64,000 bases of DNA from Pseudovirgaria hyperparasitica. Lineage: Eukaryota. The stretch is from NCBI GenBank assembly GCA_010093815.1, contig ML996566.1. One strand, given 5' to 3'. A program made the position numbers and the translations under genes. Positions 1 to 21,687 of the stretch are shown here, piece by piece. Position 1 is the first letter of the stretch; each line of letters opens with the position of its first letter. The notes under the pieces were generated by a model, which did no database searches, was not told where the DNA came from, and worked only from the letters and a program-made list of their open reading frames with translations.

Positions 1-470
1 ATATATATATAGCTTATATTATTATAGAGATTCTAGTAGTCTATATAGATAGTACTCTATTAAAATTAGAGTATAAGACTATTTTTAATATTAATATCTC
101 TTTATTAATAGAGAGAGAGAAAATATCTTTTATCTTTCTTAGTAGACCTATAGTAGAATTCTAAGAAGAGTATTATTCTAAAGTTTTATATAAGTATAGC
201 TATTATTAATAGCTATATATAGATTATCTTTTATCTAGAATCTAGTAGTCTATAGAGATAGTACCTTATTAAATTAAAAGTATTTAAACTTTAATACCTC
301 TTATAGATAGAACTAGAAGAAATATTCTTTATCTTTCTTAATAAATCTATAGTAGAATTCTATAAAGGGTATTATTCTAAAATTTTAAGAGAGTATAGCT
401 ATTACTAATAGCTATATATAGCTTATCTTATATAAAAAGTAGTAGTATTCTATATAAAGTTAACTAGTAT
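1..470. repeat. Degenerate ~200-bp tandem repeat (about 2.3 copies)
   Basis: 'tatctttctta..ctatagtagaattcta..gtattattctaaa..gtatagctatta.taatagctatatatag' at ~131-222 recurs at ~330-421. 'ctagtagtctata.agatagtac' occurs at ~33 and ~242. Confidence 0.7.
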
Positions 471-807
471 AGACTCTAAATTTAGTACTAAGCTATTTAT
501 ATACTATTTATATCTTATAAGTATAAATAGGGAGTTAATAATATATATATAGTCTATTCACGCCCTATTAATAAGTAAGTAAATACCTAGTATATAGCTA
601 CCTAATTAACTAGGGATATACCGGTCCTAGAGGGGTATAAATAATATACTAACTAGTAGACTAAACTATCTCTCCTATATACTCGACTATAAATCTAATA
701 TCTAAGGAGGTATAGAGATAGATAGAAGTTAATGTATAAACCGTAATAATAGACTAGAGAATAGTACCTAACTTACTATACGATTATATATATCGCGTCT
801 AGTCTAA

Positions 808-1399: not shown

Positions 1400-3584
1400 G
1401 TAGTATATTAAATCTTAGGGTATTTAAAGGTTATAGAAGCGTCTAGAATCGGCGATTCTAGGTGCTTATTTATATTAAGTGATGAAGTTCGTAGATACGT
1501 ACGAAAATATAAAGAACTAAGAATTAATAAGACGGCTGAATGCCCACTCTTTTAGTATTACGGTCTAGCTATTAGTCTACGGCTATAGTATTATAGTTAT
1601 GGGCCTACCCTAGTACTAGATTATAATTTACTAATAACTACTTAAATCTTATACGCATGTCCGCACTTAAGAAAAACCCAACCCTTTAACTACTTAAGTC
1701 CATGTCAATATTATTAGGGTCGGTCGAATCTACCAATAAGGGCGGCGGGAAATCTAGGTTAGATCCAGGGAACGCTGTATCATAGTAAAGTTCTTAAACT
1801 ACGTGTTCGTCCTTAAAAGGGCCATAATTAGCAAGATACTATACCTAGGTAGTAAGCAGCCGGTCTTAGTTAATAATAATGCCACTATTAGGCATACTAG
1901 GCTATGTATCGATCGTTGGCTGTTTAGATAGATCTAAGATCCGCGACCTAGAATCACCCTTACCATCCGATACGATAGCATCAGTGCCCTTAGGAGATAT
2001 ATACGATAACGTGGTAGTAATAGTCGGTATAGTTAGCGTAATTAAAGGAAAAACAGGAGGAGGGTTAAGGTCCGTAGAAGGTCCTAGAATCGGCGATTCC
2101 ACACGTTCCTTAGAAATAGTACTAGAGTCTACGAGGGGGTCTAGGGGGTTTATCCATATAGTATTATCGGGCACATTATCTAAAACCTTAGAGGCGTCTA
2201 TAATCGCCAATTCTAGTGCCTCCTCTAGTATCTCATTACTAAGTTTAACGCGCTTAACGGCCTTACTTAAATCGCTATACGACGCTATACGCTTCTTCCT
2301 TATAGTTACTTCGGCTATAGAAGACTTTTCGGCGGTATCAGCTGGCGGCTTCATACGACGTAATAAATCCTCTTCGTCACTCTCGTCGACTTCCTTAGAC
2401 GGGTTAAGGTCGGGATCGTTATACTTTAGCTTATCCCGAACTTACTATGTGGCGAGCTAATACGTAAAGCTAATGTTAGACCAATAATCATAGAAAATTA
2501 GACGACCGAGCGACTCCCTAAGTTAGCAAAGTACGGCGAGTTATCGCTCCTAATAATTAGTAGAAGTCTCGAATCTAGGTTCTTTATATACGGGCTAGGC
2601 GAGCCGAAGACAAAGACCCTCTACGAGAATTTTAGGGCTCCACGTAAGTCTCTCGAGCCGCTTATAGGGTGGAATCAAACGGTAGTATTCCTTAGAGCTA
2701 TAGAAGTATAGATCGATGTAGATATTAGGTCTATAGCCGCCCGCTCTAGCGCCACCTAGTATATATATAATCTTCGCGATAAAAGTAAATCTAGTATAGA
2801 GCTTGCCTTAATTCTCGAGACGCGAAATTCTCTCCGCTATAGCTAACCAGAACTACATAACGTAGTAGTATCTAACCGAGCGGTAGATAATAGGTTTACC
2901 TATTACTAGTCGATCAATAAAGAAAGCTATCGCCTAAGGTCGTAGACACCTACTAGGAAGCTTTGGGTCGTTAGAGATTATAAAGTTACTATCGTTTTTT
3001 TTGCGCTTTGGCGCTTTGGCCTTTTTTATAGCTGCGGCTATAACTAGAGTAGTGCTAGTCGGCTTTACGGTATCGGTTTAGTTTACCTTTAATCTTTTCG
3101 ATGGCGTTCTAACTACTTTCCAGACTTTAGATTTTAACGGTATTCGCGGTAGTAGCAAGTTAGAGGCATCGGGTTCGGAATCCGGATTATTAGGAAGTTC
3201 GCCATCTATAGGCGGAGGTATAGAACCTAAATCATTAGTATTATCTTCGGGTTCCTTTACCGAAGATAGTTCCGTAGTAGAGTATAGCGTTTCTATAGTC
3301 GGCTCTTTTACTACTATACTATTCTTAAGTAGCGGTGCGGTCTTAGACGTTTTACCGGTCTTACTTATAATAGAATCGGCGGTATTTTTAGTCTTAGAAC
3401 CCTTCTTCTTCTTCTTCGCGGGGGATAGTTTATTAGTTACTAGAGGACGGGCTACCACGGCTCGACCATATATAACGTTATCCCTAATTATATCCTCAAC
3501 GAAACGTGTACGGTTAGTATAAACTTCCTAAGATAGAGCTAACTTAATACTAGCGGCGCGAGCCGCATGTACACGAGGTGTCAT
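1400..3584 (-). pseudogene. RIP-degraded orphan gene (Lys/Pro/Ser-rich, unknown function); 3' end uncertain
   Basis: ATG at 3584 (MTPRVHAARAA...) is in frame with ORF 3078-3458, which has a KKKKK basic patch. Coding-like sequence continues through ORF 1902-2354, probably across an intron near 2450-2500. Confidence 0.5.
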
Positions 3585-3614
3585 CGGTATATATTAGATA
3601 GGTAGTTCTACGGT

Positions 3615-3739
3615 AGACGGTTAGTATAGAACATATATATCTTAAGAAGGGCCTGGAATCGTCGATCGTAGACGGTTATAGGGAACATATATATCTTAAG
3701 AGGGGTCTAGAATCGTCGATCCTAGACGGTTATAGGGAA
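3615..3739. repeat. 54-bp tandem repeat (about 2.3 copies) containing the 19-bp palindrome
   Basis: agacggtta..g.aacatatatatcttaaga.ggg.ct(g/a)gaatcgtcgatc.t is repeated. The palindrome copies start at 3653 and 3707, 54 bp apart. Confidence 0.85.
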
Positions 3740-3879
3740 AGACTATAGAGTATATATAATAACGAATGCGCGGGTATTGGAATCGCTAATCCCAAGGATC
3801 ACTAAAGCCGGGATTTAATATACCTAGAAACTTAATAGCGCGCGTTTCGATCGACGGGAATACAATACTAAAGGATATT

Positions 3880-4556
3880 AGTAGATGATAGTAATTCGTA
3901 TGATTAGAAACCCACTAGACAATAGGTATAATATTAAGTATATCCTCCGCCAATAGCACGACGAGTAAGATATCAAATGGTATTTTATCATTATTAGAGT
4001 CCTCGAAAGCCATTCGTATACCGAGAAGGGTAGAATAGGCTCCGGCGTCTATAGCCCATCTATACTTCGATATTCTAAGGATAGGATAAAGAATCCGAGC
4101 GACGCTACTAACATCCGGGTCCTAATGATTAACCGTAGTTTCGACGATGCTTTTATACAAACCTCTTAGAACGTTACAACGTTTTTTTATATCCGACTTC
4201 GTCTTTACACATGTTAGTATAGCCACGTGTATAATGATTTTTATATTAAGATTATATGGCTCCATTACTAGAATTTCCTCAGATTCCAAAACCTTATAAT
4301 CCATGAGGGCGGCCACGAGTTCCGGACCGGCTCCTTTACGGATAACTACGTTAATACCACCGAAACGCTTAGCATCCAATTACCTCTACGTAGCGTTCAC
4401 CAAACAGACGTCCTTCTCTAGTATCTATATAATATTACCGACCACGAACTTTACGCTATTCATACGTGACGGTATTAGTTTTTTATAAGATTAATAGAAA
4501 CGATCGTTCCCTACTAGATTGTTCAGGTCTTAAAGTATCTATTAGGCATAGCATAT
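3880..4556 (-). pseudogene. RIP-degraded orphan gene
   Basis: ORF 4122-4379 extends in both directions through isolated TAG/TAA stops as protein-like sequence (...SRMNSVKFVVG... and ...DPDVSSVARILYP...RWAIDAGAYS...). Confidence 0.4.
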
Positions 4557-5399
4557 GGATCTAGAAGTTTTAGCCGGTTCCGAAGGTCTAGTATCTTCCA
4601 CGGGTGGCGGAGCTAATTATACCGCCTTCCCTTTTCCTTTGCTTAGCTTAGTCAGAAGGCTCTAATCGCCTACCATTTTATTAAACCTATATAATCTATT
4701 TAGAGGCGTCTATGAATTACGATTACTAATAAGATAAACGAACGAATTATAAGACTTATTAACGTATACAAGAGTAAGTAAGTTAATATAGAAGAGAAAA
4801 AATTATAAGGTGGTATATATTCATATACCTTCGTGCAAATACTAAGCTAGTCTTATTTAGGTAGTAACATTATAAAAGTGAATAGAGGTTAATGAACCGG
4901 ATACAATATAGATAAGTAGTAAAGTAAAGTAATACTAAGTAAATGAAATGAACCCTCCCTTACGTCGCGTAAGTCGGAATAACGTAATACTAGTTCGAAG
5001 CCTATACTTACGTATACTAAGATGTTACTAGAAGTAAAAGGCTGTCGGCGCTCAACGTTTCCAGACGCCTCTAGTACAGAGTAGAACCACGTTTTAAAGG
5101 TATAGAAAACGAGTATAGGAATACTTAACGGAGCGTATAAGACAGTATTAGAAATTATAATAATATTTAACTAGGCGTCGATTATGAAAGTAAGGAGATA
5201 TAATAAGCCATAAGGACGACCATCCTTATATAGACTATTAAAGGAAAGATACTAGTAGCCACGAACACAATAAAATAACCAGTAGAATATAAATACACGC
5301 TATTAAAGAAAAGTACCAACCATAGACGCGACTAGAAACGCCGATTCCAATCCCTCCTAGAAGATAGTTAAGCCTTACCATTATCTCCACCTATGTTTA

Positions 5400-8300
5400 T
5401 TAGTATCTCATCTATTATAAACTACTCTACTATATAAGTAGTCTAGTCCTTATTAACGAATCGTTCGGTAGCGTGTTCTATTAGGAAGAGGTCTTTATAG
5501 TCTTCGATTAACTATATTATACGGATCGTAGGCTCTAATATAGATCTTAATAATATTATTTTCTCGCTGGCTTCTCGTAGTAAATGGATCCTATCTCTAC
5601 TATCTACCTCGTCCTTACCATAACTATAGGCACTACGCTTGGTAGGGTCCTTATCTAGGCGGTTATTAGGGCGGCGCATAGTATTACTAATAATGTTAAA
5701 TGTACTAGTAGCCCTCTCCGTTAGATTAGTAACACCTAGCCCCTCGCTTTGGTTAATAACGATACCACGGTTGAATATTAGGAGGCGTTTTATAACTTTA
5801 AGCACGGGAATAGCCGTGGATTCCGGTTTATATAGCTTCTTAAACTCCGGATCGTCTTCATAGATAATTAGACCGAAATCATGGTATACATCTCTAATTA
5901 TAGGATACTAGCCCTTAAGGATAGACGGAATAATAATATCGAGAGTAGTGTCGAGGGTGCCGTCCACGAGACTAGATAGAGTAGTAAACATCTTAGGTAA
6001 TGCTCGGCGAGTCATGGCCATGGACATTTTAGATGCCCATGTGTTTAGCATGTAGTACTTAGAAAGCAGGGTCGGTAAGAGCTATTTAAGTCGAAATATG
6101 CGACCTAAGAGCTGCCGTAGAAGAGCGAGATTAGCTGGATAAGAAAAGAAATGAACATTTCTATTCGCCTTCTATAAATTAAAACTAACCCCTATAATTC
6201 CGTATATATTAACGAACCAATCGATCCGGGAGGGAACTCTATTAATGTCGTCCTAATGGGTATTATCGCCGTCTAAGAACGCACTAGGATTAGCGATTCT
6301 AGGCGCCTCTAGTAGGTCGTCCTTATTACCGGCAATGTCGTTAGGCGTGGTCTTATTAAAGGTAGAGTCTATCTTCTAGTTGAATAGTCTATACTTTTAT
6401 TATCTAGTTAGCGCGTCGTCTTCGGTAAAGACACGTCCGACGTACTTAAAGCCTATTAGCCGTAACATATAATATACTAACTCACGCTTAATAGAATATT
6501 ACACCCATACGATGCCCTTCTCCTGGTACTTAAAGTACTACGTTATAGCTTATATAGCGAGTACTACGAGCCGAGGGGACCAGTTAAATAGAATACCTAG
6601 TAGTGCCACTAGCACGTTCTCTACTTCGTTAACTAGCTTAGTAAGTCCACTCTTAGGATGGCTTCGATCACGAGCTTAGGCGATATTTAGTAGGAAAGCG
6701 TATATCTAACGCGGGCTTACGTTCTTAGAGCCAGGACGAGGGAATTTTAGCTTCTATTCATTATCTTTCCTTAACGCTACTATGTCCCTACGCATGAAAA
6801 AGTGTGAATACCTAATATAGATAATAGTAGATATTAGTACTAAGTTCCGCTGTATGCGGAGTTCAGGCTTAATTCCGAGGGTCGGTGAGGATTCGGCTAA
6901 ATAAGCTTCTTTTGGGTCTCCTTACTAATCTTATCGTACTTAGCCTACACCTCTAGTAGATACGCTACTTTAATCTATACCCTTTCGGCCCGCGGAATAT
7001 AGTTACGGATTAAAGTAGCATTATTATCGCTATACCGTAAGTCGTTCGTGCGGCGAAGTATAAATACTCCGTATATTATACTTAAGTACTAGCCTTATAC
7101 TAGCTCTAATGGCGGCTTAGGATCATTACGGCCGGAACCTAGGTACTAGTACTTAAAGGCCGGAGAAGTTAGATATATACCTAGGACGCGATCTAGTTTT
7201 TCCTACGAAACGTCCGGATATAGTCTTACTATTATCGATAGAAACTTATATAGGTTAGACTTCGCCTTGAATGGCGGCTGTATACCGGAAATACCGTTAA
7301 AATAATCGTTAAGGGATGCGCTCTATTATATAACTTTAAGAAGACCCTATATATTACTAGTAAAGTTATAGACGGGAGTACTAGTCACGAGGACGTAGTA
7401 TTTAATATTAAGCTCGTAGATGGACCGGTTAGTCGTAGAGTTAATATTCCGGAAGCCGTATACTTCGTTAGCTACCGTATAGTCGAAGCACTAAGCGAGG
7501 TTCCAAGGGGCATCATATAGAAAATACTACTTCTCTATATATTTCATTTCTACTAATGCGACGGCGTCCTAATTTCTAGATTTAATGTTCTAGAACTCCG
7601 CGTACCCTCATATTTTCTCTCTCTACCTAGTAAGGCTATAACGGGCGTTAAACGTTGCGTAGGACATTAAGATAATAGTACGGGCGTTAATCTCCTCCGG
7701 TCTAAAGTACTAACTCTTCTATATTAAGATACCTACTAAACGCGTAGTACTAGTAGCTGATTTCCCGACCCTACTATTACCGTAACTAGTAATGACACGG
7801 AAGAGCGAGGAAAAGTCCGTAATCTACTCGGCGGTTTAGGTAAGAAGATTTACGGGTACTAATAGTAGGGCGGGCTTCGGAGAAGATACTAGAATACCCT
7901 TCTCGCGATTAGTGATGCGCTCGTTAATTAACTACATTTTAGTTAGATATATATAGGCGCGTCTAGAATCGGCGATTCTAGAGGCCACTAGGGGAAGGAA
8001 CTTACATGTAGCTAGTGCGCTAAAAGTGTAAATGTTTTACCTAGTCCGACACCATCTACTAATACTACACCCCGTGAAACTAAACTATCCATGCTCTTTC
8101 GGAGCTACTAAGCTCCTATAAGTTACTACTAATATAGAGTAACGCTAGGATTTATATTAAGAATCTAAGGTTTTCGGGTACTAGTAACTCGGAGACCCAC
8201 CGCGGCTATAACATAGTCTTATGGTTGGGCGGCGCCGTTATTACTCTAGTTATTTAACCAATCCTATAGTTTACTTCTCTTCTCGCTACCCGACTTTAAC

Positions 8301-9853
8301 TAATCCATAATTAGTACTATATTACTAAGATCCGTGTTAATGCGTGCGGTGATTACCGCCTTATTATTATTTACTTAAATAACCTCGTTAGTTTTAATCT
8401 CGGAGATCTTTTAAGTACCGCTTAAGCCCTTTATAAGATTCTTAATAGTAAGGTAAGAGTAGTACGGACACGTTTCTAGTTTAAGATAATCCGGATTAAC
8501 GACGTTACGATCCTTATAAGTTACTATAAGCATGGCCTAGAGCTCTTCTTTGGAGGGGAGACTCTCGAGATATAATCTAGCGAACACACGCCGATCGCCT
8601 ATATTAATGCCCTCGTCTTCGACTATAAATTCTAGATTATTATAGGTATCTATTAATACTCCCGATGGATTTAGACCGTGTTTCTATATATTAGTCCACG
8701 CTTTAGTATGGTACTCGGGTAATTTTTTCCTTAGTGCCTTTATAGGCTTTAAGGAACGTTTTAGTTTTACTAGGGTAGCTATAGGTCCTTCTTTTATAGT
8801 AGTATCTAGTATAGCTAGTGCGTCTAGCATGGGTGCGTCGAGGAGCGAGTTCGGATCTATTACTTAGATGTCTTCTATCGGGTCCTAATCTATAGTATCG
8901 CTAGTATTCTTACTAAGTTCCCTATTCCGGTTAGTGGTAGAGTTACCATCGGCGGCTTAGTGTTAATCTAAACGCCTTCTAGCTTTTTTCTTAGAAGGGC
9001 CTATAATCGTCGATCCTAGACGGGCCTATAGAGTGATTAGTAGATGAGTAGGGGGAACCTAGTTAGTAGGAACTTTCCGAGGCATTATAGACATCTACCT
9101 CGCGTTAGTATAGATAATTTTCATACGAAAGTTATCCTCGTATTCTTGCCCTTAGTTACGGGCATGGCGTCGGTATTTAAGTATATCGTTAAATAGAAGA
9201 TATTTATCGTTCTCCGATATACGCATTCGCGAAAGAGGATTCGTACGATTAGAAGATAGCTTAAGATCTATCCGGAGAATAAGAGACGCGCGCCACTAGT
9301 AATCTTCCTATTTACTACGACTAGCGGCTATTACTATAAGGTAATGGGCACGGTCTTCTTTAATAAGTTCTATAGCTAAAGTAAACTAGCTAAACGGATG
9401 CGAACCTTCTAGAATCCACGGGTTAAAGAACTCTACATAGTATTCATTAAGTAAGGCGTTAACTTTAGGATCCTAGAATAAAATGGCTGCTTTAACCACG
9501 CTAATTCCGAGGTTAGAGGTAATCTTACTAAGGCGACGGTCCTTTTCTAGCCTAGGTTCCTTTTTACGCTCCTATCTAGCCTCTTTTCCCGGCTTTGGCT
9601 CGATAGATGCGCCTTTTCCTACTTCGCCTGCTTCCTCCTCTATAGTAGCGACCTTAAGAAATCGCTCTATGGCTTTAGAATTATAGTCTATTAAGCTACT
9701 ACCTACGATAAGAGCGGATAAGGTGGTATATTTCTTCTATAACGCTGCTCTGGTTTCGCGAATCTCTTTAGTAGCTATATCTAAAAACGGATCGAGAAAA
9801 TTATTATCTTCTTTCTCTTATGCTTAAATATTAACTAGAAGAAAAGGAGCCAT
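5400..9853 (-). pseudogene. SNF2/SWI2-family helicase-like ATPase, RIP-inactivated (the N-terminal part may be a separate gene)
   Basis: Motifs in order: Walker A RGVVL(V/A)DGVGLGKT (~8030-8075); GTAAGT..CTAAC..TAG intron ~7932-8005; Ia KPALLLVPVNLL (~7850); motif II ANEVYGFRN = A[D]E[AH]GFRN (~7460); III VLVT(S/G)TPVYN (~7380); EKGIVWV (~6510); V GVSFNL*KAN (~6175); VI RQLLGRIFRL (~6100). Confidence 0.85.
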
Positions 9854-10350
9854 GATCTCTAGAAGGGTCTGTAAACGGCGATCGGTGGGTTAAATATATA
9901 TATATCGAAAAAATGAGATTACGTAAGAAAATAGTAAAATGATATAGGAGAGATGGAGAGAGTTAATGGAAATAATATATATAAATATATATTTTGGGTC
10001 TTATCACGTGTTATTACATAACCTTCTTATGTTACGTTATAACGTGTTACAAGTGAAGTGAATTAACCTATCGGTTTTATTAGAAATTCCAGCCCCTACT
10101 CTAGAAATCGCTATTTATAGGGTGCCCTATAGTTAAGGTCGTAGATTCTAGTTCTTATACTCTTATACTAAATGCGTAACTACGTTACTAGGAGAATTCT
10201 TTTCACGTCTCCCTCTTTATATTCTATTTAATATAGGGCGACGTGGATTAAGAGTACTAACTTATGGACGTTATCTATAGGCATTAAGATACTCTATAGA
10301 CTTTATATACTTCTAGACTTAAACTATAATAACTATAAATTCTACCGACC

Positions 10351-13300
10351 CTATCGACTAACATCTATAACTAGTGGAGTACCCTAATTAAATTCTAGAA
10401 TAGCATTCGTAATTTCATACGCCCCCTCTCGCCGCTTACGCTATAGCTAACGGGCTAATTCACTAGAGTCCCATGCACCTTCTCTTATTACCATTGGTAG
10501 TTGGCCCGTTTTCGAAATTCCAAACCCTTCTAACCGGGTAGCCTATTATCTAGATAGGTGGACTACTATTACGCTAAGAGCTCGATATAAACCAAATTTC
10601 TATATATACTTAATATTTCCCGGGAGCCGACGGAACCCTAGTTATCCCTCCAGTCTAGGCTCCCACCACGGATATAGAATTTATAGCTAGTAATAGGTGA
10701 AGTAGTACACGTGTTTGGGCATGATATTACTCTTTCGCATTTGGTCGGCTAGTACACGCTTAACCATGTCTATAAGTCGTCTATTATCTAAGTAGTACGT
10801 AGTATAGACTCCACTATTAGTACCGCATACATCGTAATAACTGGCCTACCATCGTCTCTACTCGGATAATAACTAGACGAGACTTATATATTATCTATTT
10901 TATAGACGACGTTCTTATGCTACCAGTTTCATAGACTATTATTATATAAACATTCGTTGATTATAAGTGTCCTCGCCCACGTAATCTTCGTCTAGACACG
11001 CACTAGGAAGTTCTAATACCCGCCCTTTCGCTGGTCTTCCTGCCTCGTCTATACTATTACCATGTACACGTGCTTATTTCATCTTATTCCACGTATAAGG
11101 CGGCTGGCGCGACGGTTAATTGGTCTAGGGTAGGTCGGGTTAACTATTTAAGGAACCCATAGGTGAGCTACTAGGAAGGTCTAGGATCGCCGATTCTAGA
11201 TCCTCCTAGAGGGTCTCTAAATGTAGTAGGAATGTTAATAGGGTAGGATCGCATACATCGTACTTCTCTTTAACCCCGTTATAGCTCTTTCTACTAAACG
11301 ACCCGTCGAGATACTCGTCTAGGAACACCCTACGACACCCTATCTAGTTTATATAAGTAAGTATCATCGCGTTCTTAGTAGTGGCTTCTTCTATCTTTAC
11401 GAAGATAGCGAGGCTTCTCGTTAGGTAGTCGCGACCGGCCCGGCCGCTTTCTTATATATAGTCTAGGAATGAAGAAGGAGCGCCTAAGTGTATCACGACG
11501 CGAATAGTAGCTAGGTTAACACCTAGGCCGAGAGCGTTTATAGTAACTATGATACCTTCTTCTTCGGCGATAAATCCGTTAAGGACCTACTCCTTAGCTA
11601 TACTCTCTTAATAGTACGCATTATAACCAAGCTCCCCTACGAGGCTAATAGCTTACGTGACCATAGGCGTAAAGACGAGACATCTACCGGTAATGCCCTA
11701 TCTAATACGTCGCACGTATTCCGCTTAACTACGGGTACCTCGAGCCTTCTTAGGTAGGCTCCTAAGCGTATACGTAATATTAGGCCGAGTTATAGCTTCG
11801 CGGTGGATGAATACATCTCTAGCGTTTATATATATGGCTTTCTATAGCCCTACTTTATCATCGGGTGGTAGGGTTATACTTAGGAGTATAATCTACACCT
11901 CTAGGTTAACTATTATTTAGATGTCGCGAAAGGCCGGCCGGAACTAGTTATTATTAATGATATAGTGGTACTTATCGATAATCACACGGTCGAGTAGTCC
12001 TAGGCTATTTATATGGTTTATAAACTATATGAACGGTTCGCCTTTTATAGACTCGGGCGTAATAATAATAATAGATATCCCGTAAGGGGGGTGCGTAGGG
12101 TCGAATGCTTCTATAGTAATACTACTATTATAATAACGGCGGATAAGGTTATCTCGAAGGGCCTTTAGCGGGATAATAACTAGTATTACTCTATCTAGTA
12201 CTATTAACGCAGCTAATATGAAAGGTAGACTTTTACCTAAGGTAGTCGGCTATATAACTAGTATCGGACTACGGCCTTCGACTAGCCCGGTAAATACCTT
12301 TTCTTATTAGGGTTATATTCTAGCGTTTTCATTACGGAGTACGACCTTAATAGTCTTATACGGGTCCTTCTCCCGGAGTGCAGCCTAATGGTAAGCCCGT
12401 GCTTATAAAATTCGTGTCTAGCTAGGTGTAACCTTATCGAACATAGATACCCCGATCTCGTGCTACTATACGCGACTAATCTAGAAGTACCTCTCTATTA
12501 CCGTCTTTACCGCACTAAACGGGCTACTTATATCACGACTATACGCGATCTAGATAATCTTTATACTATGACTAGCTTACTTATTAAGGATAGCGGTTAG
12601 ACTATTATCTCGGGTACCCGGATTCTAGTCCTCGTTCTATAGACTATTCTTATTAGCCTCGTCTATATAGTTAATCTCGTACTTCTAAAGCTTACGCTTT
12701 ATAATTGTAATCACGACTTAACGATAGTCTATAATACCCATGTTAACTACTCCTATACTAAGATGTATCTATTCCCTTATCGCATGGCTTATACGCTCGC
12801 TAGTCTAGTACGGTAATAGCTATATATGTATAGGGACGACTATCTATGTTAGATCCATGAATCTCTCGAGTTATTCCTTCCACGGGATAACTAACCAAAG
12901 ATACCATATTAGAATATTATATACGACCGGCGGTAGATATCGAAGAATTAGGCGGATATCTCCTTTACGTATATACCCTTTATGGTACTTTATTATAATG
13001 TAAAGCTTATTACTATAAAGAATAATATTACGTATATCACCCTATCGCGTGTTACGGTACCGTATACTTAGGATTTCTAGTCCGCGTGTAGGCTGTCTAG
13101 CTATTATATAGATAAGAATAAGTAGCTAACTAAGAAAGACTCGAATCTATTCGAGCTAGTCTTATGCTTTTTGTGTATCTAACTCTCCTCTGGTAAAGAA
13201 CGCTAACTGTATATTCTAGTCCTTTTTAACTCGCCTTCTAAACCATGAGGACTACTCCTAGAGGCACGCTAACTAAAGGAAGCTATACCTGATTATGTTA

Positions 13301-14991
13301 TCAGCCGTATTATCCGTAAGTAACTACCATAGAATTACTAGTACTCCCTCTATAGAAGATAGTAGAAGAATATTAGTATATAATGTTCGCGCTATTCGAT
13401 TTATTAAGCTAGAGACTATCCCTCTAAATGCATTTATTAGAATTATATGTGCATTATACGTAAGTGTATTATTAACCTACTGTATCTTTACGTCTATGGC
13501 TATGTTACCCACGATTTTAAGACCGTAAGCTCTAAGTTATATCTACTATCTAACTATACCGCGACTACCGCGGAGGAGATACTAGTTAATAAATGGTGAG
13601 AGATATCTAAGGATATCTATAGTACCACCCGCTTACTTATAGAAGACTTCCTAGATGGCCTACTTAAGGATAATAAGGCGGGAGAACTTAATAAGTACTA
13701 ATAGAGTAGACGTATAGTTCTATGGTGAAAGGAAGCCCCCGTTTCGATCTATATATAGTAGGCCGGATAATGGGACTAGTGCGGCCTCGAATAAGTATAT
13801 ATATAGCGTCTATTATAGTAATATAATGATAAGCTATATATAAAGGTAGGCGATGCGAGAAAGAGGGCGGGTTTAGATACTAAACACCTCGTATAGTTTT
13901 ACCCGACGTGTTTCCAGATCCCACTTACTAAGATTACCTTCTACTCTATAATAGTTATTAGTTATACTCGTCTCGGGTTTAGAGTCGGAGCTACTATTAC
14001 TCTCGCCGGATGGCTATTCCGTAGTAATATAGTCTAGAAGCCGAGTAATACACGCCTTAGTCTTAGCGTTAAAGACTAAAGCTAGGAGGTAGTAGAGATT
14101 CTAGTACGCTTAGATGGCCCCGATAATAAGACGCTAAAGATGCTTCGAGTAATCGCGGAATATTTTCTAGTTCTAATAACGTGCGAGAGGTCGCTATAGC
14201 CTAGGCTCTATTATAGAACGCGCTACTTCTAGGCATAGTAGTCTATTATAAGCGCCTACTATCTTATAGGCTTAGTAGAATAGAACTCTTAGACTAGATA
14301 ATACTATCTTTAGCGGCCCTTCGGTAGATATCTCTAGGATATTAGTAAGTGCGAGGATATCCATGCCTTAGAAGTAGTTAATAAATTTTATGCGTTCTAG
14401 CCATGGATTAACTTTGTCGATAGCGCCGGTTTATACTATATAACCTTCATCTTTAAGGACGTTCTACTAATTTAACTAGAGCTAATCGAGTGTGGTATTA
14501 ATTAGTATATGAGTGTATATAGTGGTACGTGTTATAATCGGGATGAGGCGGTTCAACCGGCCTATATTATATAGGTATTAGTATGGTATATTATCTCTAT
14601 ATCCACGTATCTTATCATCCGCTCTAGGTGGAGCCCCCCTACGCCTATTAAAGAACGCTACATGTTCGTTTTTAATATGTGATTTAAGATTCTTTAAAAG
14701 GCTAAGAACTAATCCGTAGTTCTCGATAATATATTAGAACCCTCTCTTAACCGGAATATATCTTATAGGCCGTGATAGGGCAGCGGGTATTCGAAGGTCG
14801 TCGATTATAGTAGCGGTATAACTAAGCGAGTAAATATAGCTTTTAATAATCTTATGATACTTCGGTCTTATTCCTCGGTATTCTTAAAGGAGGTGGCGGT
14901 CTAGCGCGGATAGGAGGATGGCGCGCTTATAATCTCGATAGATAATTACTCCGGTATCAAGGTCGACGACTAGTAGTAAATCTATAGACAT
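10351..14991 (-). pseudogene. DUF3505/telomere-linked-helicase-type protein: Zn-finger-like N-terminus + tyrosine-recombinase-like core + RecQ-like DExH helicase + Cys-rich C-terminus, RIP-inactivated
   Basis: One frame at all points sampled from ATG 14991. In order: II[C]RD[C]KRAIL..LDRHL; NPWLER; [G]QP[A]RG[P]EILSIRYRN..RNI..KYHKG..RYLP..WYLWLVIP; DYR[Q]; [D]K[Q]A[G]HS..AY[G]R; SPILVI*PTT.GKSLPF; IITPES; LDRVIID[EC]H; ALGLGVN; Y.[Q]ESGRAGRD; CRRVFLDEYLDG; [C]DVC. Brackets are RIP reversions. Confidence 0.9.
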
Positions 14992-15099
14992 CTATATATA
15001 TTCGTATAGTATTAGTAGATTAGCGTCGGGAGTAGACTATGATATATATAATTATATTCCTATAGATAGGTGTGGAAACGGCGATTCTAGACGGCTCTA

Positions 15100-16830
15100 G
15101 AGTAAGGAGTTTTTAGGTCCTTTGGTTTTCGACGGCCGTGCCGTAGGAAATCAATAGCTACTACTAGCCCCGATCTTCGGCTAAGGTATTCTACTATTAG
15201 TATAGTCGCTACTAAATTAGTGTATTTTATTCTCTAATCTACCTTATCATTATCTATAGTACGCATGTCCTATGGCGTACTTAGCCCTAGGCTATGGTCT
15301 TATAGATTAATTAGATTTATAAACTACTCTAGCGCTATATTCATAATATTTTCTAAGGTTATTCTCTCGATCGGGAACTACCTAGGTAGCGTAATGTCTC
15401 CATTTAAAATCTAATATAAATATAGCTTAACACCATAATAAAGTCGTCTAAGCCATAGATAACATCGGTCTACAAGGCCTAGGAAGTCCTCTAGTATACT
15501 AACCCTTATCTTCTAGAAGAAAGAGTCCGTAATTTCGGGTGGTAGTAGAACGAATAACCCGTCGCTAAACCTCTCGCGGATTAACGCCTAGTGCGCGCTA
15601 TAACTTAACCAATCGTTCATTTATTTCTACTGTCTTATCCGCTTAAAGGCCTCCCCTTACTATATATATATATTAATATCTAGGTCCTACGGTTATTCTA
15701 GACTTGGCGTATAATCTCCTATGAGTTGATTAATACGGGCATATAGGCGAGCCTTTATAATTAACCGGATGCCTTGCCTAGTACTAAGGGTGAATGTGCG
15801 GTCTGTTTTCAGTGCCTCCTTAGTAGCGTTTATAGCTTTATATATATCCGCGAGTGCTAGGCGACGTCTAATCCCGATAAGACGCGATGTGTATACTAGC
15901 TTAACGATCTTAAAGTAGAGTATACTAGCCTAGTCTATGAATATACGTACTAAGCGTTCCCTAGTCAACGTCGTATCCCTAATAATAATCTATAGGGGAT
16001 TAAGGCTATAAGACGCTATATCTACCGTCTTACTATCTCGCTATTCTTATATAAGTAATCTAAAGTAAAGTAGCGTTAACGGTAAACCAATCTCTAATGC
16101 GCGATTAAGAAGTTATCTAACTATGTTTATATCTTTAGGGAAGTATTATAATATGCCTATCTAATAAAGATAACTTACATTTATATAGAGCTATACTTTA
16201 TATTTATTCCGTGACGACGGGCTATCGGGGTTAGTAAATGACTCTATAACCTCCCTAAGCATAGCCTCATACTTTACTCTTAACTTAGCCCGGATTTTAT
16301 TACTTACTCTCGTGGTCGTTAGCGGAGTTCTCGTAGTTAACTATTCGTTCTAGTTAGATGTATCGTTACGGCGCCACTTTCTAGGGGGATTTATAGACTA
16401 ACGCTCTTCTTCGTCGTCCTCTTCTCGCTCTTAATCAGTATTATAGACTATTATCTCTAGTTATGCTAGTACTATACGAAGAGCTACCGTGGTGCTAGAA
16501 GTTATATAAGATTATTAAGAGGGTAGGGGAGATGTCGGAGGCGGCGGGCATGTATTAGGAACGAAATCGTCTTCTTTATTATTATTAGGTAAGTCGTTAT
16601 TCATATTAGTAACGTGTAAATAGGCTAGAATCTATTGCTCGTTTAGCTAACGAGCCGCTACCTCTAGTAATCGTACGATAAATAGTGGCGGGCTAGGAAA
16701 CGATAACGGTTGGAAGAAGACGGCTTAAGCTCTATCGCTCCCGCCGATAGGGAAAAGTTTAAATATAATGTCCTATGCTTAACGTATACTATCTATATTA
16801 GGGAGCGGTACTAAGGGGGGTGCTATAGCT
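15100..16830 (-). pseudogene. RIP-degraded orphan gene (~550 codons), unknown function
   Basis: Long protein-like frame broken by TAA/TAG: AVFFQPLSFPSPP, Pro-rich and acidic linkers (EREEDDEEER), and RERF(S/G)DGLFVLLPPEI near 15550. Confidence 0.5.
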
Positions 16831-19800
16831 TATAAAGTTCGTAAGTAGTAGAATAGATTAGAATCGGCGATCCTAGAGGTGTCTTAGAGTACACGATTCT
16901 ATAAGGATTACTAAGGTCCTTAGACGTATGCGTAGGTCGGCGTGTAGTATACCTAGGTACCGATCGCGCACGGTTGGGAAAATCAAAGTAAAAATCGCGA
17001 AAAATACGTAGTTTTTATGTATACTCTTCGCTACCCCCTCCGTGAAAATAATAATTATAAGTTAGCTAGATATAACTTTCGACCATGCGATTTCTTAATA
17101 TATAAAAATTATTCGGATGTAGGCGTGGGAAGGGCTGCCTTTCGACTCTACCTTACGGTGTCTTTTAACTACCTAGTTTTCCTACTAAGAGTCGTGCATG
17201 GTTACCGCCTAGGCCCGTATAATGTTCTTTCGTATATCGAAAGAACGGCTCCTAATTGTTAGCGTTCATTCGCTTATAAAAAAGGATCACTTGTACGTAG
17301 TTATATACTATGGTGCGGCTTCGGCCCTTTAGCGCCTAGGACATAGCCCGGCCATCAGCGTCGGTGCGTTTTAGGTACCGCTGCTCGAGGCATGCGCGCG
17401 TCGCGCTATAGTAGCGCACGGCGTTTAAGCGTGCTAATGCCGGTAGGGTAGGCCCTATGGTACTTCCGCACGGCCCGTGGTGTATACTTTACGCACAAGC
17501 CTATATCCTTAGATAGAAAAATGTAACATGTCTACATTCATAGCGATTCTCGGCCAGAACGTGACTAGGTAACTATAGAATAATTTAGAATAACTACGCA
17601 TTCTAGTCGGAGGTTAGTATTATAACCGACCGACGCTTTCACCTATAAAAGAATAATAAATCTTAGTCCCTAATGAGCCTTTAAGGCGAAAGACATCTAT
17701 TAGTTTATACCTAGCTATCTAGGACTTCTATTACTTATTACTTTTCCTTAACGATTTCTCCCTGCTTTAAATAACCCTAGAAGTAGAAGTACTAATTACC
17801 GCGATAGTTATATCTAATTCCTTCCGCTAGTTCTTATTTAGTATAGTATAGAGCTTTATAATATAAGTCTCTAGCCTTTCGTTCTAATACTATAAATTCT
17901 ATATAGCGTGCCTTATAGCTATAAACTTCTCTATAGAAATCTATAGGGCGGCGGGACCTAGAATAGAGAGAGATAGACTAGCGCGGGCACGCTAAGAATT
18001 ATATAAATTAGCGAAAAGATTTAACGATCGGTATAGAACTATATACCTTTAGTATAGAAACTTCTAGATTAGAGCTATCTTCTCTAAATTTATAGCTCTT
18101 TAGTATATATAAGAAAGGAACCTTAGCCTTTTTACTAGAACCTTTTCTAGAAATTTTAATATTACTAGTATATAGAAAGAAGTCTAAAGTAGTAGAGATT
18201 TTAGTACTATTATAGAGATTAATATATATTAGTAAGAATCTATAATGATTTAAGAAAATAATATTATCTAGTAATTATAGTAATAATAGCTATAGTAGAT
18301 TCTAATAAATCCTTATAGATCTTATTAGAATCGTACTTCTAGGTATAACTCTTACCTTAGATATATAGCTCGTAGAAAGCCTTCTCTAAGGCGTTATAAT
18401 CGGTAGTACTACGCTCCTTATTAGTAGGGGTTACTAGAGGCCTAGTAGTAATCTATACTAATATAAGTAAATCTACGTAAAGTTCTTTAAACTTACTTAA
18501 ATATCTATAAGTAATAATACTTCTTAGTTATATAAGTACTATATATTATAGATTTAGTACTACTATAAGTAATATATAATAGAAAGCGATAACTATAATA
18601 ATATATAGCTAGATTATTAGAGCCTGGCCTAGGTTAGGGTAGATTAATAGCTTTTAATATATCGGTAATATATACGAGATAGAGATTATTTAAAGGCGTC
18701 TATTTCTATACTAATTACTTTAGAGCGTTAAGATTTCGGGAAGCTATATTATAATTATTACTAATTTATATAGATTATTATAAATTATACTATTACTAGC
18801 TAAGGATGGTATAAAAATTAGTAAATTACGTAAATTATACTAAATTATAGTAAATCTATATAAATCTATATCTATAAGAATTAGGTAATATATCTAATAA
18901 TCTAAAAAACTCTATAAAGAGTTAAGAAGTTTTTTAAAGAAAGGAATATTTCTAAGAAAAGATTTTAATATAGGTAGTACCTAGACTTACCTAATTATAT
19001 TACGTGATACGCTAGGCCTAATTAGGTAATCTTATCTATATAAGAAGTTAGGATAGATAAAATCTAGTTTATTAGGAAAATACTTATATAAATCTTAGAT
19101 TAGTAAATATTAGTAAATATCTAAGACGAAGTATAGAGAATAACTAAGGTCTTATAAGACTTAGAATAGGGATATAGAGATAGATAATAATCTAGGTTAC
19201 TAAGGGTAGCTTCCTAGAGAGAAGGGATAATTATTAGAACTTAGTCTTAGGTAGAACCTAATCTATATATACCTTAGCTAATAGAGTTAGGAGATAACGT
19301 AAAGGGCGGTAAATAGTTATATACTAGATAGATTAGCGTCCCTTTATATATATACTCTTAGATTTCTACTAAAAGAGTTCGGTAGTAATTCGTTCTATAA
19401 TAGAATACACCCTATTATTCTATCTAACTACACTACTATCTAATAACCCTATTCTTATATATAGAGTGGTTTACGAAGATAAGAACTTTCTATTATTTAC
19501 TATTTTATATTTAAATAGATAGCGTGAATACTTACTTTAGAGTCTAAGTAGAAGTAATTAAACTATAATAAACCTTCTCTAATAAGGATGCGGCTTATCT
19601 CTAAAGTAGTCTATTATATAGAGTATTCTAGCTTTTCTAAAGGTAAAGGTACTTAGAGAGCTTAGAAGAGTATAAGTAGATTTATAATAAGTATTAATAG
19701 AGTATAAATAGTAACTAGCTAGTAGGCGAGTAAAGTAGTAATTATATTAGTATAAGTTTAAATTAATTACTATAGAACTATCTCTAGAGATCGGGTCTAA

Positions 19801-21687
19801 AGAGTCTATATAGTTCTACTAAGGTCCTCTAATTAGAATACTTATTCTAAGTATTTAGTATATTACTTAGAATACTAATATTCTATTTCTAATTATCTAG
19901 TAGACTACTTAGAATATCTATTCTAAGTATCTATAATTAGTTCTCTCTATAGATGCCTACTTTATCCTTAGATTATTATCTAAGGCTATCTATTATATTA
20001 TAGATACCTCTTCTATATATTATACTATCTCTTATACCACTCGTACTAGAGTCTATATATCCCGCTATGGCCCTAGCTAGTAATTTATTATAGTATATAA
20101 CTATTTACTACTATTTATACTATCTTCTAACTATATTAGCTAAGATATATATAGATTAGATTATATCTAAGACTAAGTTCTAATATAGAGTATTATAGAG
20201 TACTTACTATTATCTATAGTAATAATAACTTTAGACTCTTCTACTATAGGTTTAAAGAGTAGAGTAATAAGTACCTTATATAGTTATAGATAAGTAGATA
20301 TAAAAGTATAGTTAAGGCTTTAGTAATTACTATTAGACTATAGTATTATTAACTACTCTTACTATAATACTAGGTACTATATAAGGTAATAGACTTAGAT
20401 ATATTTATAGAAGAATATAGAGAGATAGAAGTATATATAGAGTAGAAGTAAAAAAAAAATTTTAGTACCTTTTTAATTATAGATTTAATTATTACTTATT
20501 AATAGAATAATAGTCGTTATATTCTATTAAAACTCGAGTATATATTAAGGACTAGGTTTGGATATATATAGATATAAATTTTTTTTCTTTTTTTTTTAGA
20601 TTTATTACCTAAGGAGGTAAATCCCTAGTACTTTTATATTATTATCTATACTTAAGATAATAGTAAGAAGTAGAAGAATTTAATATATAGTAGTTTATTT
20701 AGAGACTAAATAGAAGAGCTAATATCTACTATATCTAATAGTACTTTAGAGTTATTAATAGCGTCTACCATTAAGAGATATTTCTAAGGTTAATTTTTAT
20801 ATTTACTTCTTCTCGATTTATTAAGATAATATATTATAGTATTTAGCTACTATACTCTTAGAAGGGTAAAGATTAATAGTCTAGTAGAGAAGCTAATAAT
20901 ATAGATATAAGAGGGGGGGTATAGTTTTTATTATAGTATATAGAGAACTAACTAAAATAAGGTAAGAGAACGTCTATATACGCCTAATTACTAACCGCTC
21001 TTGTTATCCTTAAGAGGCGGTTGGGAACAACAATTATCCGCCGATTCGAGTAGGAGCCACTCATATGGTCTCCTGCCTCGACAGCGTGTCGATACTAAAT
21101 TCATCACGCAAAGAGCAGCACCACGACGAAAACGGGAAATACTTGTTTAGTGTGCATGTTTAAACTACTTCCATGTGTCTATTTGCCGTTTCCATATTTT
21201 TACTGTCTGCAACCAAACATCCCAAGCTATTGTTTGCGGTGAAAGTAATCTCCAAGGGTGTTCGTTGCTTTAAAGCCGTGGGCCGCATTCAAACATTCCT
21301 TGTCGTTATTCCGCAACTAATATCACATCTTGCAGCCTAGCTTGAAACAGAATAGAGCACCATGACTACAACGAAAGCCGGGAAACGACGAGTCTTGGGG
21401 AAGATGAAATGCAGTCAGCCTGCACCTCGGGCTTCTGTTGATTGTGACAAGCAATCTTTCACTTGAACAGTGTTGAAACAAAGCAAACAGGTAGTGAAAT
21501 TAATGGTGGGAGCAATAGAGGAGAACACCGGATGTAACTAAGGGATATCAAGTGGAAGGTAATCCTACCATGTATGTATATAAAGGGACTATCCCCATGT
21601 AGAGATTCAAAAACTAACTTGTTCTCCTATCACTGACACACACAAAAACAAGACCAGCCTCAATCTGACGAAGCCACGTTATTCGGC

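Follow-up and report, generated by a model that had tools for sequence, protein, structure and literature searches.

The telomere-linked helicases (TLHs) of model and pathogenic fungi have been known since the late 1990s and, in the available text of two sources, are annotated as RecQ helicases only (Fusarium preprint; PMC1635262). According to the accessible parts of the Botrytis and Fusarium preprints, these proteins combine C2H2 motifs with a 'TLH domain', about 250 residues long and placed right upstream of the helicase, and with RecQ motifs, all encoded by open reading frames (ORFs) of 4.7-4.9 kb; both preprints call the function of the TLH domain undetermined. The Fusarium preprint, whose text contains neither 'recombinase' nor 'integrase', aligns the domain, in the part available, across proteins of M. 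oryzae, M. anisopliae, S. pombe, U. maydis and Monosiga. Here a TLH pseudogene is analyzed, located at positions 10351..14991 (minus strand) of a stretch of 64,000 nucleotides from Pseudovirgaria hyperparasitica (assembly GCA_010093815.1, contig ML996566.1), referred to as the window, and degraded by repeat-induced point mutation (RIP). In the intact members of its family, about 350 residues just upstream of the RecQ motor are predicted to fold like the catalytic domain of a tyrosine recombinase. This region corresponds to the 'TLH domain' of the literature, which was reportedly defined by Rehmeyer et al. in 2009. No link of telomere-linked helicases to tyrosine recombinases or integrases was found in open-access papers and bioRxiv; subscription journals and automatic structure-based annotations lay outside this search.

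Among the described systems that resemble such a protein, Cryptons and the Starship 'Captain' (DUF3435) are likewise eukaryotic, fungal, multi-copy units around an enzyme of the tyrosine-recombinase fold. The TLH proteins differ from them in that they give no DUF3435 or Phage_integrase match in Pfam (E<=10), in that the ends of their element are undefined, and in possessing a fused helicase, a feature undescribed for Cryptons or DUF3435 in the open-access literature and bioRxiv: searches there found no paper on RecQ fused to DUF3435, and only unrelated papers for Crypton together with RecQ helicase. The Rep/Hel protein of Helitrons combines a tyrosine-based DNA-cleaving domain and a helicase in a single large ORF that fills most of the mobile unit, as the TLH protein would. 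Helitrons use an HUH nuclease (5'-phosphotyrosine) and a 5'->3' Pif1 helicase, and the TLH protein would be their mirror image, with a 3'-phosphotyrosine and a 3'->5' RecQ helicase.

From the Xer, Cre and lambda-Int tyrosine recombinases, the TLH domain differs by the absence of detectable sequence-profile similarity, by Ala, Gln or Ser in place of the His of H-x-x-R, by large insertions, and by its fusion to an OrsD zinc-finger region and a RecQ helicase. With type IB topoisomerases and the hairpin telomere resolvases (TelK, TelA, ResT), it would have in common the superfamily fold and the R-K-R-H-Y chemistry. The resolvases are tied to telomeres of another kind, namely hairpins, whereas fungal chromosomes end in TTAGGG repeats. 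An ATP-dependent unwinding activity is reported for ResT, as far as the available text goes (PMC5388405); the helicase of the TLH proteins is, by contrast, a separate fused RecQ domain.

Predicted fold and active site of the TLH domain

Intact relatives were searched by using the region of the pseudogene frame upstream of the helicase. A word-indexed search selected 6 proteins at E<=1e-3 among 6582 candidates, the best of which (7.1e-38) is from a Teloschistes lichen fungus. An exhaustive search with the same region retrieved 842 representatives at E<=1e-3, 343 at <=1e-10 and 26 at <=1e-30, down to a best value of 4.9e-51; residues 600-890 of one of the relatives, P0004, matched 379 proteins when used as a query. 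The usual layout of these proteins is PF12013, followed by an unannotated stretch and by PF00270 and PF00271. The named members, from Alternaria, Pyrenophora, Plenodomus, Didymella, Coniosporium, Fusarium and lichens, are called 'RecQ helicase' or 'hypothetical' throughout. A full-length family profile, compared with PDB, matched RecQ5 best (3.4e-72), then RecQ1, BLM, E. coli RecQ and WRN (range 1e-59 to 1e-72). The helicase part, made of DEAD and Helicase_C lobes and with RecQ proteins as its closest solved relatives, belongs to RecQ.

The structure of the unannotated stretch was predicted by AlphaFold2, without templates, on residues 471-900 of P0004 and a 91-row family alignment. The resulting model has a mean local confidence (pLDDT) of 87.1 and a predicted template-modelling score (pTM) of 0.84, and was aligned structurally to each of 48,161 representative solved chains. 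Ranks 1 to 31 are occupied by one superfamily only, while the first unrelated fold, at rank 32, scores 4.6. The top three matches are Xer recombinases, namely archaeal Xer 4a8e (score 11.9, root-mean-square deviation (rmsd) 3.0, 173 aligned residues), XerH (10.8) and XerA (10.7); they are followed by bacterial topoisomerase IB (10.2), Cre (9.9), and the integron and phage Brujita integrases (9.5 each). Variola and human topoisomerase I, Flp, the HP1, P2 and lambda integrases, Ndc10, TelA and TelK are found lower within the same 31 ranks. Foldseek, used independently, reported XerH (E 1e-3, probability 1.00), XerA, Cre, lambda Int, Tn1549 Int, TelA/TelK and human topoisomerase I, with high rmsd values suggesting that the sub-domains may be placed differently relative to each other. 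A protein-language-model look-up provided, far below the family itself, only two named neighbours, a tyrosine recombinase cluster (0.82) and NDC10_II (0.81), which are to be taken as a lead only.

With respect to Cre and Xer, the model contains large insertions, at model residues 76-144 and 253-272. According to the alignment ranges, the distance from the first aligned helix to the first Arg is about 139 residues, compared with about 41 in Cre.

Candidate active-site residues occupy defined positions in the model. R175 (model numbering, as for the residues that follow) starts helix 176-180. K210 is located between the hairpin strands 201-208 and 219-224 and would be, judging from position rather than from superposition, the equivalent of Cre K201. 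R298 is within a helix, while H341 and Y350 flank the last short helix, beside a low-confidence stretch which is presumably mobile. Several structural alignments end at Y350 or one residue past it (human topoisomerase I, 438..723; Tn1549 integrase, 189..380). The residues opposite Y350 are 723 in human topoisomerase I, where the title of entry 1r49 reads Y723F, and 379/380 in the Tn1549 integrase, where the title reads Y379F.

Conservation of the same residues was evaluated on two sets of relatives, by using P0004 numbering. In the 56 hits, of 156, that span the whole motif region, G641, R645, E648, R663, K680, R693, R768, H811 and Y820 are invariant (56/56). A larger count was performed on 270 family members, where denominators refer to the members covering each position: R645 is kept in 268/270, E648 in 270/270, K680 in 269/269, R768 in 246/246, H811 in 236/240, and Y820, nine residues past the His, in 236/238. 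Where these residues are not kept, the changes found are R>K, R>W, H>Y (three times), H>P, Y>H and Y>S; several are of RIP type. The residue directly before R768 is aromatic (Y or W). R663 and R693 are additional invariant arginines, for which no obvious recombinase counterpart is seen.

The predicted active-site set, composed of an Arg in G-x-P-x-R-x-x-E, a Lys on a beta-hairpin, a second Arg, a His and a Tyr nine residues later, thus appears to be intact in the family. An earlier, sequence-only reading of the window had proposed that a tyrosine-recombinase-like motif set is fused in frame to the RecQ-like helicase, and had staked this proposal on the fold of the region and on the invariance of Arg, Lys, Arg, His and Tyr in intact homologues. 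The five residues turned out to be near-invariant, and the predicted fold is that of tyrosine recombinases and topoisomerase IB. Taken with the model, this makes it very probable that the TLH domain is a catalytically competent domain of the recombinase fold.

Other features of the family lie outside this domain. Past the helicase, a Cys/His cluster (C1394, C1397, H1407, C1412, C1443 and C1446; alignment A2, P0158 1394-1446) is invariant in 12/12 sequences and probably represents a further zinc-binding module. A recurrent form of 871-961 amino acids (P0159, P0160, P0201, P0270, P0012 and P0008) contains OrsD and the recombinase-fold domain and ends just before the helicase. These sequences may derive from genes split by frameshifts, as reported for TLH genes in Fusarium in the available part of the corresponding text (Fusarium preprint), or may represent a real helicase-less form.

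The degraded copy in the window

The pseudogene is contained in one frame (14991..10351) of 1547 codons, with 97 stops and no frameshift; every one of the 60 stops listed, of the 97, is TAA or TAG. A tblastn search with intact relatives produced a single colinear segment (13791-11251), again without frameshift, and no second copy of the gene in the 64-kb window. The window and the family differ at 345 well-conserved columns, 124 of which are within reach of a T>C or A>G reversion, against 21 for the opposite change. The RIP indices within the gene are 1.57 for TpA/ApT and 0.37 for (CpA+TpG)/(ApC+GpT). Because the frame is colinear without frameshift and RIP reversions prevail, the locus is a RIP-killed pseudogene, with its frame kept, of a fungal telomere-linked helicase.

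A Pfam scan of the frame identified OrsD (below threshold), DEAD and Helicase_C, while the middle region gave no match. The N-terminal OrsD/C2H2-like region (PF12013, which we take to be the former DUF3505) spans residues 11-110 (14662..14961; this and all following features are on the minus strand), with an E value of 0.0023 which is under the cut-off; the same family is clear in P0004 (E 3.6e-16). The DEAD/ATP-binding lobe of the RecQ-type helicase (PF00270, E 2.8e-06) spans residues 897-1042 (11866..12303), with a remnant of Walker A, TTLGKS, at 12246-12229. The C-terminal lobe (PF00271, E 9.6e-09) spans residues 1099-1187 (11431..11697), with ESGRAGRD at 11451-11428. The order C2H2/OrsD, 'TLH domain', RecQ and the ORF length of about 4.6-4.9 kb are those of the published TLH proteins.

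The remnant of the domain with the predicted tyrosine-recombinase fold was located, by mapping model residues 35-381 of P0004, at residues ~496-848 (12448..13506). All six codons of the putative active site (R, E, K, R, H, Y) are preserved in it. The first catalytic Arg (CGC, 13086-13084) and the Glu of R-x-x-E (GAA, 13077-13075) are found within ARQPTRGLE, at 13075..13086. The catalytic Lys codon (AAA, 12979..12981) belongs to KYHKGY, which corresponds to the beta-hairpin of the model. The second catalytic Arg codon (CGT, 12721..12723) is in DYR*VV, where the next codon, a stop, derives from Gln by a RIP-type change. The His codon (CAT, 12568..12570) is part of the A-G-H motif, A-S-H in the window, and is the counterpart of His/Trp-III in tyrosine recombinases; the codon of the putative nucleophile Tyr (TAT, 12541..12543) is found nine residues past it.

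The strings quoted in the sequence-only reading share indeed one minus-strand frame (the frame starting at 15198), and all were found where they had been placed: LILIYIIARQPTRGLE at 13122-13075, KYHKGY at 12990-12973, RYLPP at 12942-12928, DYR*VV at 12729-12712 and ASHSIKII*IAYSR at 12576-12535. The ancestral motifs that had been derived from them can all be reached by T>C and A>G changes alone (R632 from G, T635 from A, L638 from P, stop758 from Q, N803 from D, stop805 from Q, S807 from G and S818 from G).

Genomic context of the relatives and of the window

Arrays of (TTAGGG)7-20 were found at the end of 6/74 metagenome loci encoding relatives, always 3' of the gene, in one orientation, and at about 0.4-4.6 kb from the gene end. 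If only loci with at least 2 kb of downstream sequence are considered, 5/23 reach the telomere. The relatives are therefore true telomere-linked helicases: as in the published TLH genes, the gene reads towards the telomere, while the window copy is RIP-dead and has no adjoining telomere repeat. In the whole window, no (TTAGGG)3 was found at <=1 mismatch, and (TTAGGG)2 at <=2 mismatches is no commoner than expected by chance.

In three of the relatives' loci, L017 (6412-7660), L023 (~1624-4800) and L037 (~2212-6227), the TLH gene is immediately followed by a long array of short tandem repeats; in L023 the array is located between the gene and the telomere. These arrays resemble the 'helicase-associated repeats' of M. 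oryzae, as these are described in the available part of the report (PMC1635262). Interstitial copies of (TTAGGG)2, oriented as the terminal arrays, are present in L031 (5560-5571, 125 bp after the gene), L052 (1460-1471, 286 bp before the gene) and L018 (111-122, 6.5 kb upstream). In loci L016-L089, the hexamer is biased towards the sense strand of the gene: upstream of the gene TTAGGG occurs 81 times and CCCTAA 18 times, inside it 138 and 2 times, and downstream of it 249 and 13 times, in a count that includes near-duplicate loci and terminal arrays. Inside genes, TTAGGG codes mostly for Leu-Gly, and in 9 intact ORFs 17/86 Leu-Gly pairs are written as TTAGGG, against 5.6 expected by codon usage.

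In the window, the pseudogene is contained in an AT-rich block (bases 1-21000) with a RIP dinucleotide signature, where TpA/ApT is 1.5-1.6 and (CpA+TpG)/(ApC+GpT) is 0.05-0.39; for comparison, the values for 21001-64000 are 0.70 and 1.23. No ORF of at least 150 codons is present from 2461 to 21687. The window start (4-434) contains a 199-nt tandem repeat (2.1 copies, 80% matches). Two blocks with a GC content of about 0.25 (18001-21000) show the most extreme RIP index (0.05-0.17). A RIP-degraded remnant of a Macro domain (PF01661, E 1.4e-05) was identified at ~4130-4400 on the minus strand. It belongs to frame 4856..1443 (1138 codons, 4% stops), which suggests a second dead gene within the block; a Pfam scan of four low-stop frames of the block found nothing besides this remnant.

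A 21-nt palindrome, TCTAGAATCG-N-CGATTCTAGA, is present in 9 copies at <=3 mismatches, against 0 expected, at positions 1442, 2083, 2197, 3706, 7962, 9000, 11180, 15071 and 16857. All are within the RIP block (span 1442-16877); one is in the C-terminal part of the helicase ORF and one just upstream of its start, and the flanks of the copies are only 60-70% similar. The palindrome was considered as a candidate recombination site and rejected: it is absent from all 89 loci examined, and is therefore not a feature of the family.

Proposed role, alternatives and implications

Given its residues, the TLH domain would cut DNA through a 3'-phosphotyrosyl link and then rejoin it. Published subtelomere anatomy points, less firmly, to site-specific recombination at telomere-like repeats as the reaction performed, by which the TLH unit would be inserted or copied at chromosome ends. 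RecQ helicases travel 3'->5' and migrate junctions, and the fused one might serve to open up telomeric DNA as substrate or to push the branch point along tandem repeats. In M. oryzae, according to the text available, seven subtelomeres give way to unique sequence within a repeat that begins with CCTAACC, at its first or second C, 181 bp-scale upstream of the gene (PMC1635262). In Botrytis, 14 TLH copies are reported in one strain and none in two others, in the accessible part of the work (Botrytis preprint). Both the fixed junction and the copy variation agree with integration of the unit at a short shared core, which is also the way the proposed mechanism would resemble that of Cryptons and DUF3435 elements. 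Telomeres of M. oryzae devoid of TLH are described, in the same partial source, as normally propagated and stable (PMC1635262), which argues against an essential host role and is no proof of mobility. That a recombinase-fold domain acts on telomere-like repeats and spreads the TLH unit is the best explanation overall, and its chances of being right or wrong are evenly balanced; for the moving or copying of the unit as the role of the domain, taken by itself, the balance is just short of even. The 'integrase-helicase fusion' of the sequence-only reading holds as far as fold and active site are concerned, and its mobilisation of the surrounding element is something we infer.

Several results weigh against this explanation. 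In Pfam, at E<=10, neither Phage_integrase (PF00589) nor DUF3435 was matched by any of the full proteins (0/6) or domain fragments (0/43). A profile of the domain, compared with all PDB sequences, produced one chance match at E 2 and no recombinase, and hhalign, run against XerD, against lambda Int and against 14 aligned sequences of E. coli K-12 recombinases and lambda Int, gave a probability of 0.2. That sequence-based methods see nothing may be the reason why the annotation has been missing so far. In the helical region upstream of the domain, modelled from P0041, only generic helical matches were obtained, and a core-binding domain was not recognised. The placement of the putative catalytic residues would fit a canonical active site, with a geometry that comes from alignment ranges and secondary structure only. 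The His of H-x-x-R, three residues before R768, is not conserved: in 248 covered members the position is A in 95, Q in 64, S in 44, R in 12 and L in 8. The string DYRQ of the sequence-only reading contains the second catalytic Arg and not this His.

As to mobility, the window copy is a relic that cannot act, and its surroundings reveal no element ends. Six of the relatives' loci, corresponding to at most 4 distinct places (L019/L021 and L041/L042 are duplicates), extend for at least 5 kb downstream without a telomere. Comparison of paralogues among loci provided no usable element boundary, because at a coding identity of 82-90% the sequences no longer match beyond the ORF. Nor did this analysis find an excision product, an empty site or an element terminus. 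Ordinary recombination or break-induced replication would be sufficient to explain the subtelomeric spread.

The missing His bears on the choice between a recombinase and a topoisomerase. Cre has seven active-site residues, of which Tyr and Lys are indispensable; the His of H-x-x-R can be dispensed with, since all substitutions but five are active, and about 13% of recombinases have no His there; the Glu that follows the first Arg 'organizes the active site' and is without equivalent in topoisomerase IB (Gibb et al. 2010, PMC2943603, as far as the available text goes). Six of the seven Cre positions are present in the TLH domain: the His is missing, as in topoisomerase IB, and the Glu is present, as in recombinases. 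The main rival explanation accepts catalysis, and sees in the domain a swivel or nickase of the topoisomerase IB kind, serving the fused RecQ, which would relieve torsion or dissolve joint molecules in recombination-based telomere repair, by the logic of RecQ-Top3 pairs or reverse gyrase; the protein would then be a host telomere-maintenance enzyme, and its gene would not be moved. We regard this as unlikely. The Glu of R-x-x-E, invariant in all of the 270 members, accompanies the catalytic pentad, so that the domain does not qualify as type IB, and the best three structural matches are Xer recombinases; for both reasons a divergent recombinase is the preferred reading of the model. The normal propagation of TLH-free telomeres in M. 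oryzae also speaks against a swivel (PMC1635262, in part), and a patchy distribution among strains and a high copy number, as far as reported, suit a selfish unit better than a housekeeping enzyme (Botrytis preprint).

The recombinase fold could otherwise serve as a DNA-binding module only, as in Ndc10 or in the phage repressors MrpR/SroF, and tether the helicase to subtelomeric repeats. This is improbable: the five chemistry residues and the organising Glu are kept in 98-100% of the 238-270 covered members, which would be unexpected without selection on catalysis, and several of the few exceptions (R>W, H>Y) are of RIP type. A chance resemblance of the motifs, combined with an artefactual similarity of the model to recombinases, is more improbable still, since the pattern recurs, with near-invariant motif residues, in intact homologues retrieved at E values down to the 4.9e-51 given above.

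If the TLH domain is a recombinase that spreads its own unit, TLH units could form a new superfamily of eukaryotic integrative elements, each with a single giant tyrosine recombinase-RecQ protein and with telomere-like repeats (TTAGGG / CCTAACC) as crossover core; this proposal is tentative, and we lean towards doubting it. It would explain the published siting at chromosome ends, the arrays with telomere repeats on both sides, the sharp inner boundary at a telomere-like motif, the variation among strains and the occurrence in a choanoflagellate. On this view, what are called 'telomere-linked helicases' in S. pombe, Magnaporthe, Fusarium, Ustilago and elsewhere would be selfish elements that target telomeres, and not host telomere genes. 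Recognition of the predicted recombinase fold gives the TLH domain a concrete, testable chemistry and suggests how the units may colonise chromosome ends. It would extend the known range of eukaryotic DNA-rearranging enzymes by a fusion of recombinase and helicase, and bears on the plasticity of fungal subtelomeres, where effector and secondary-metabolite genes often sit.

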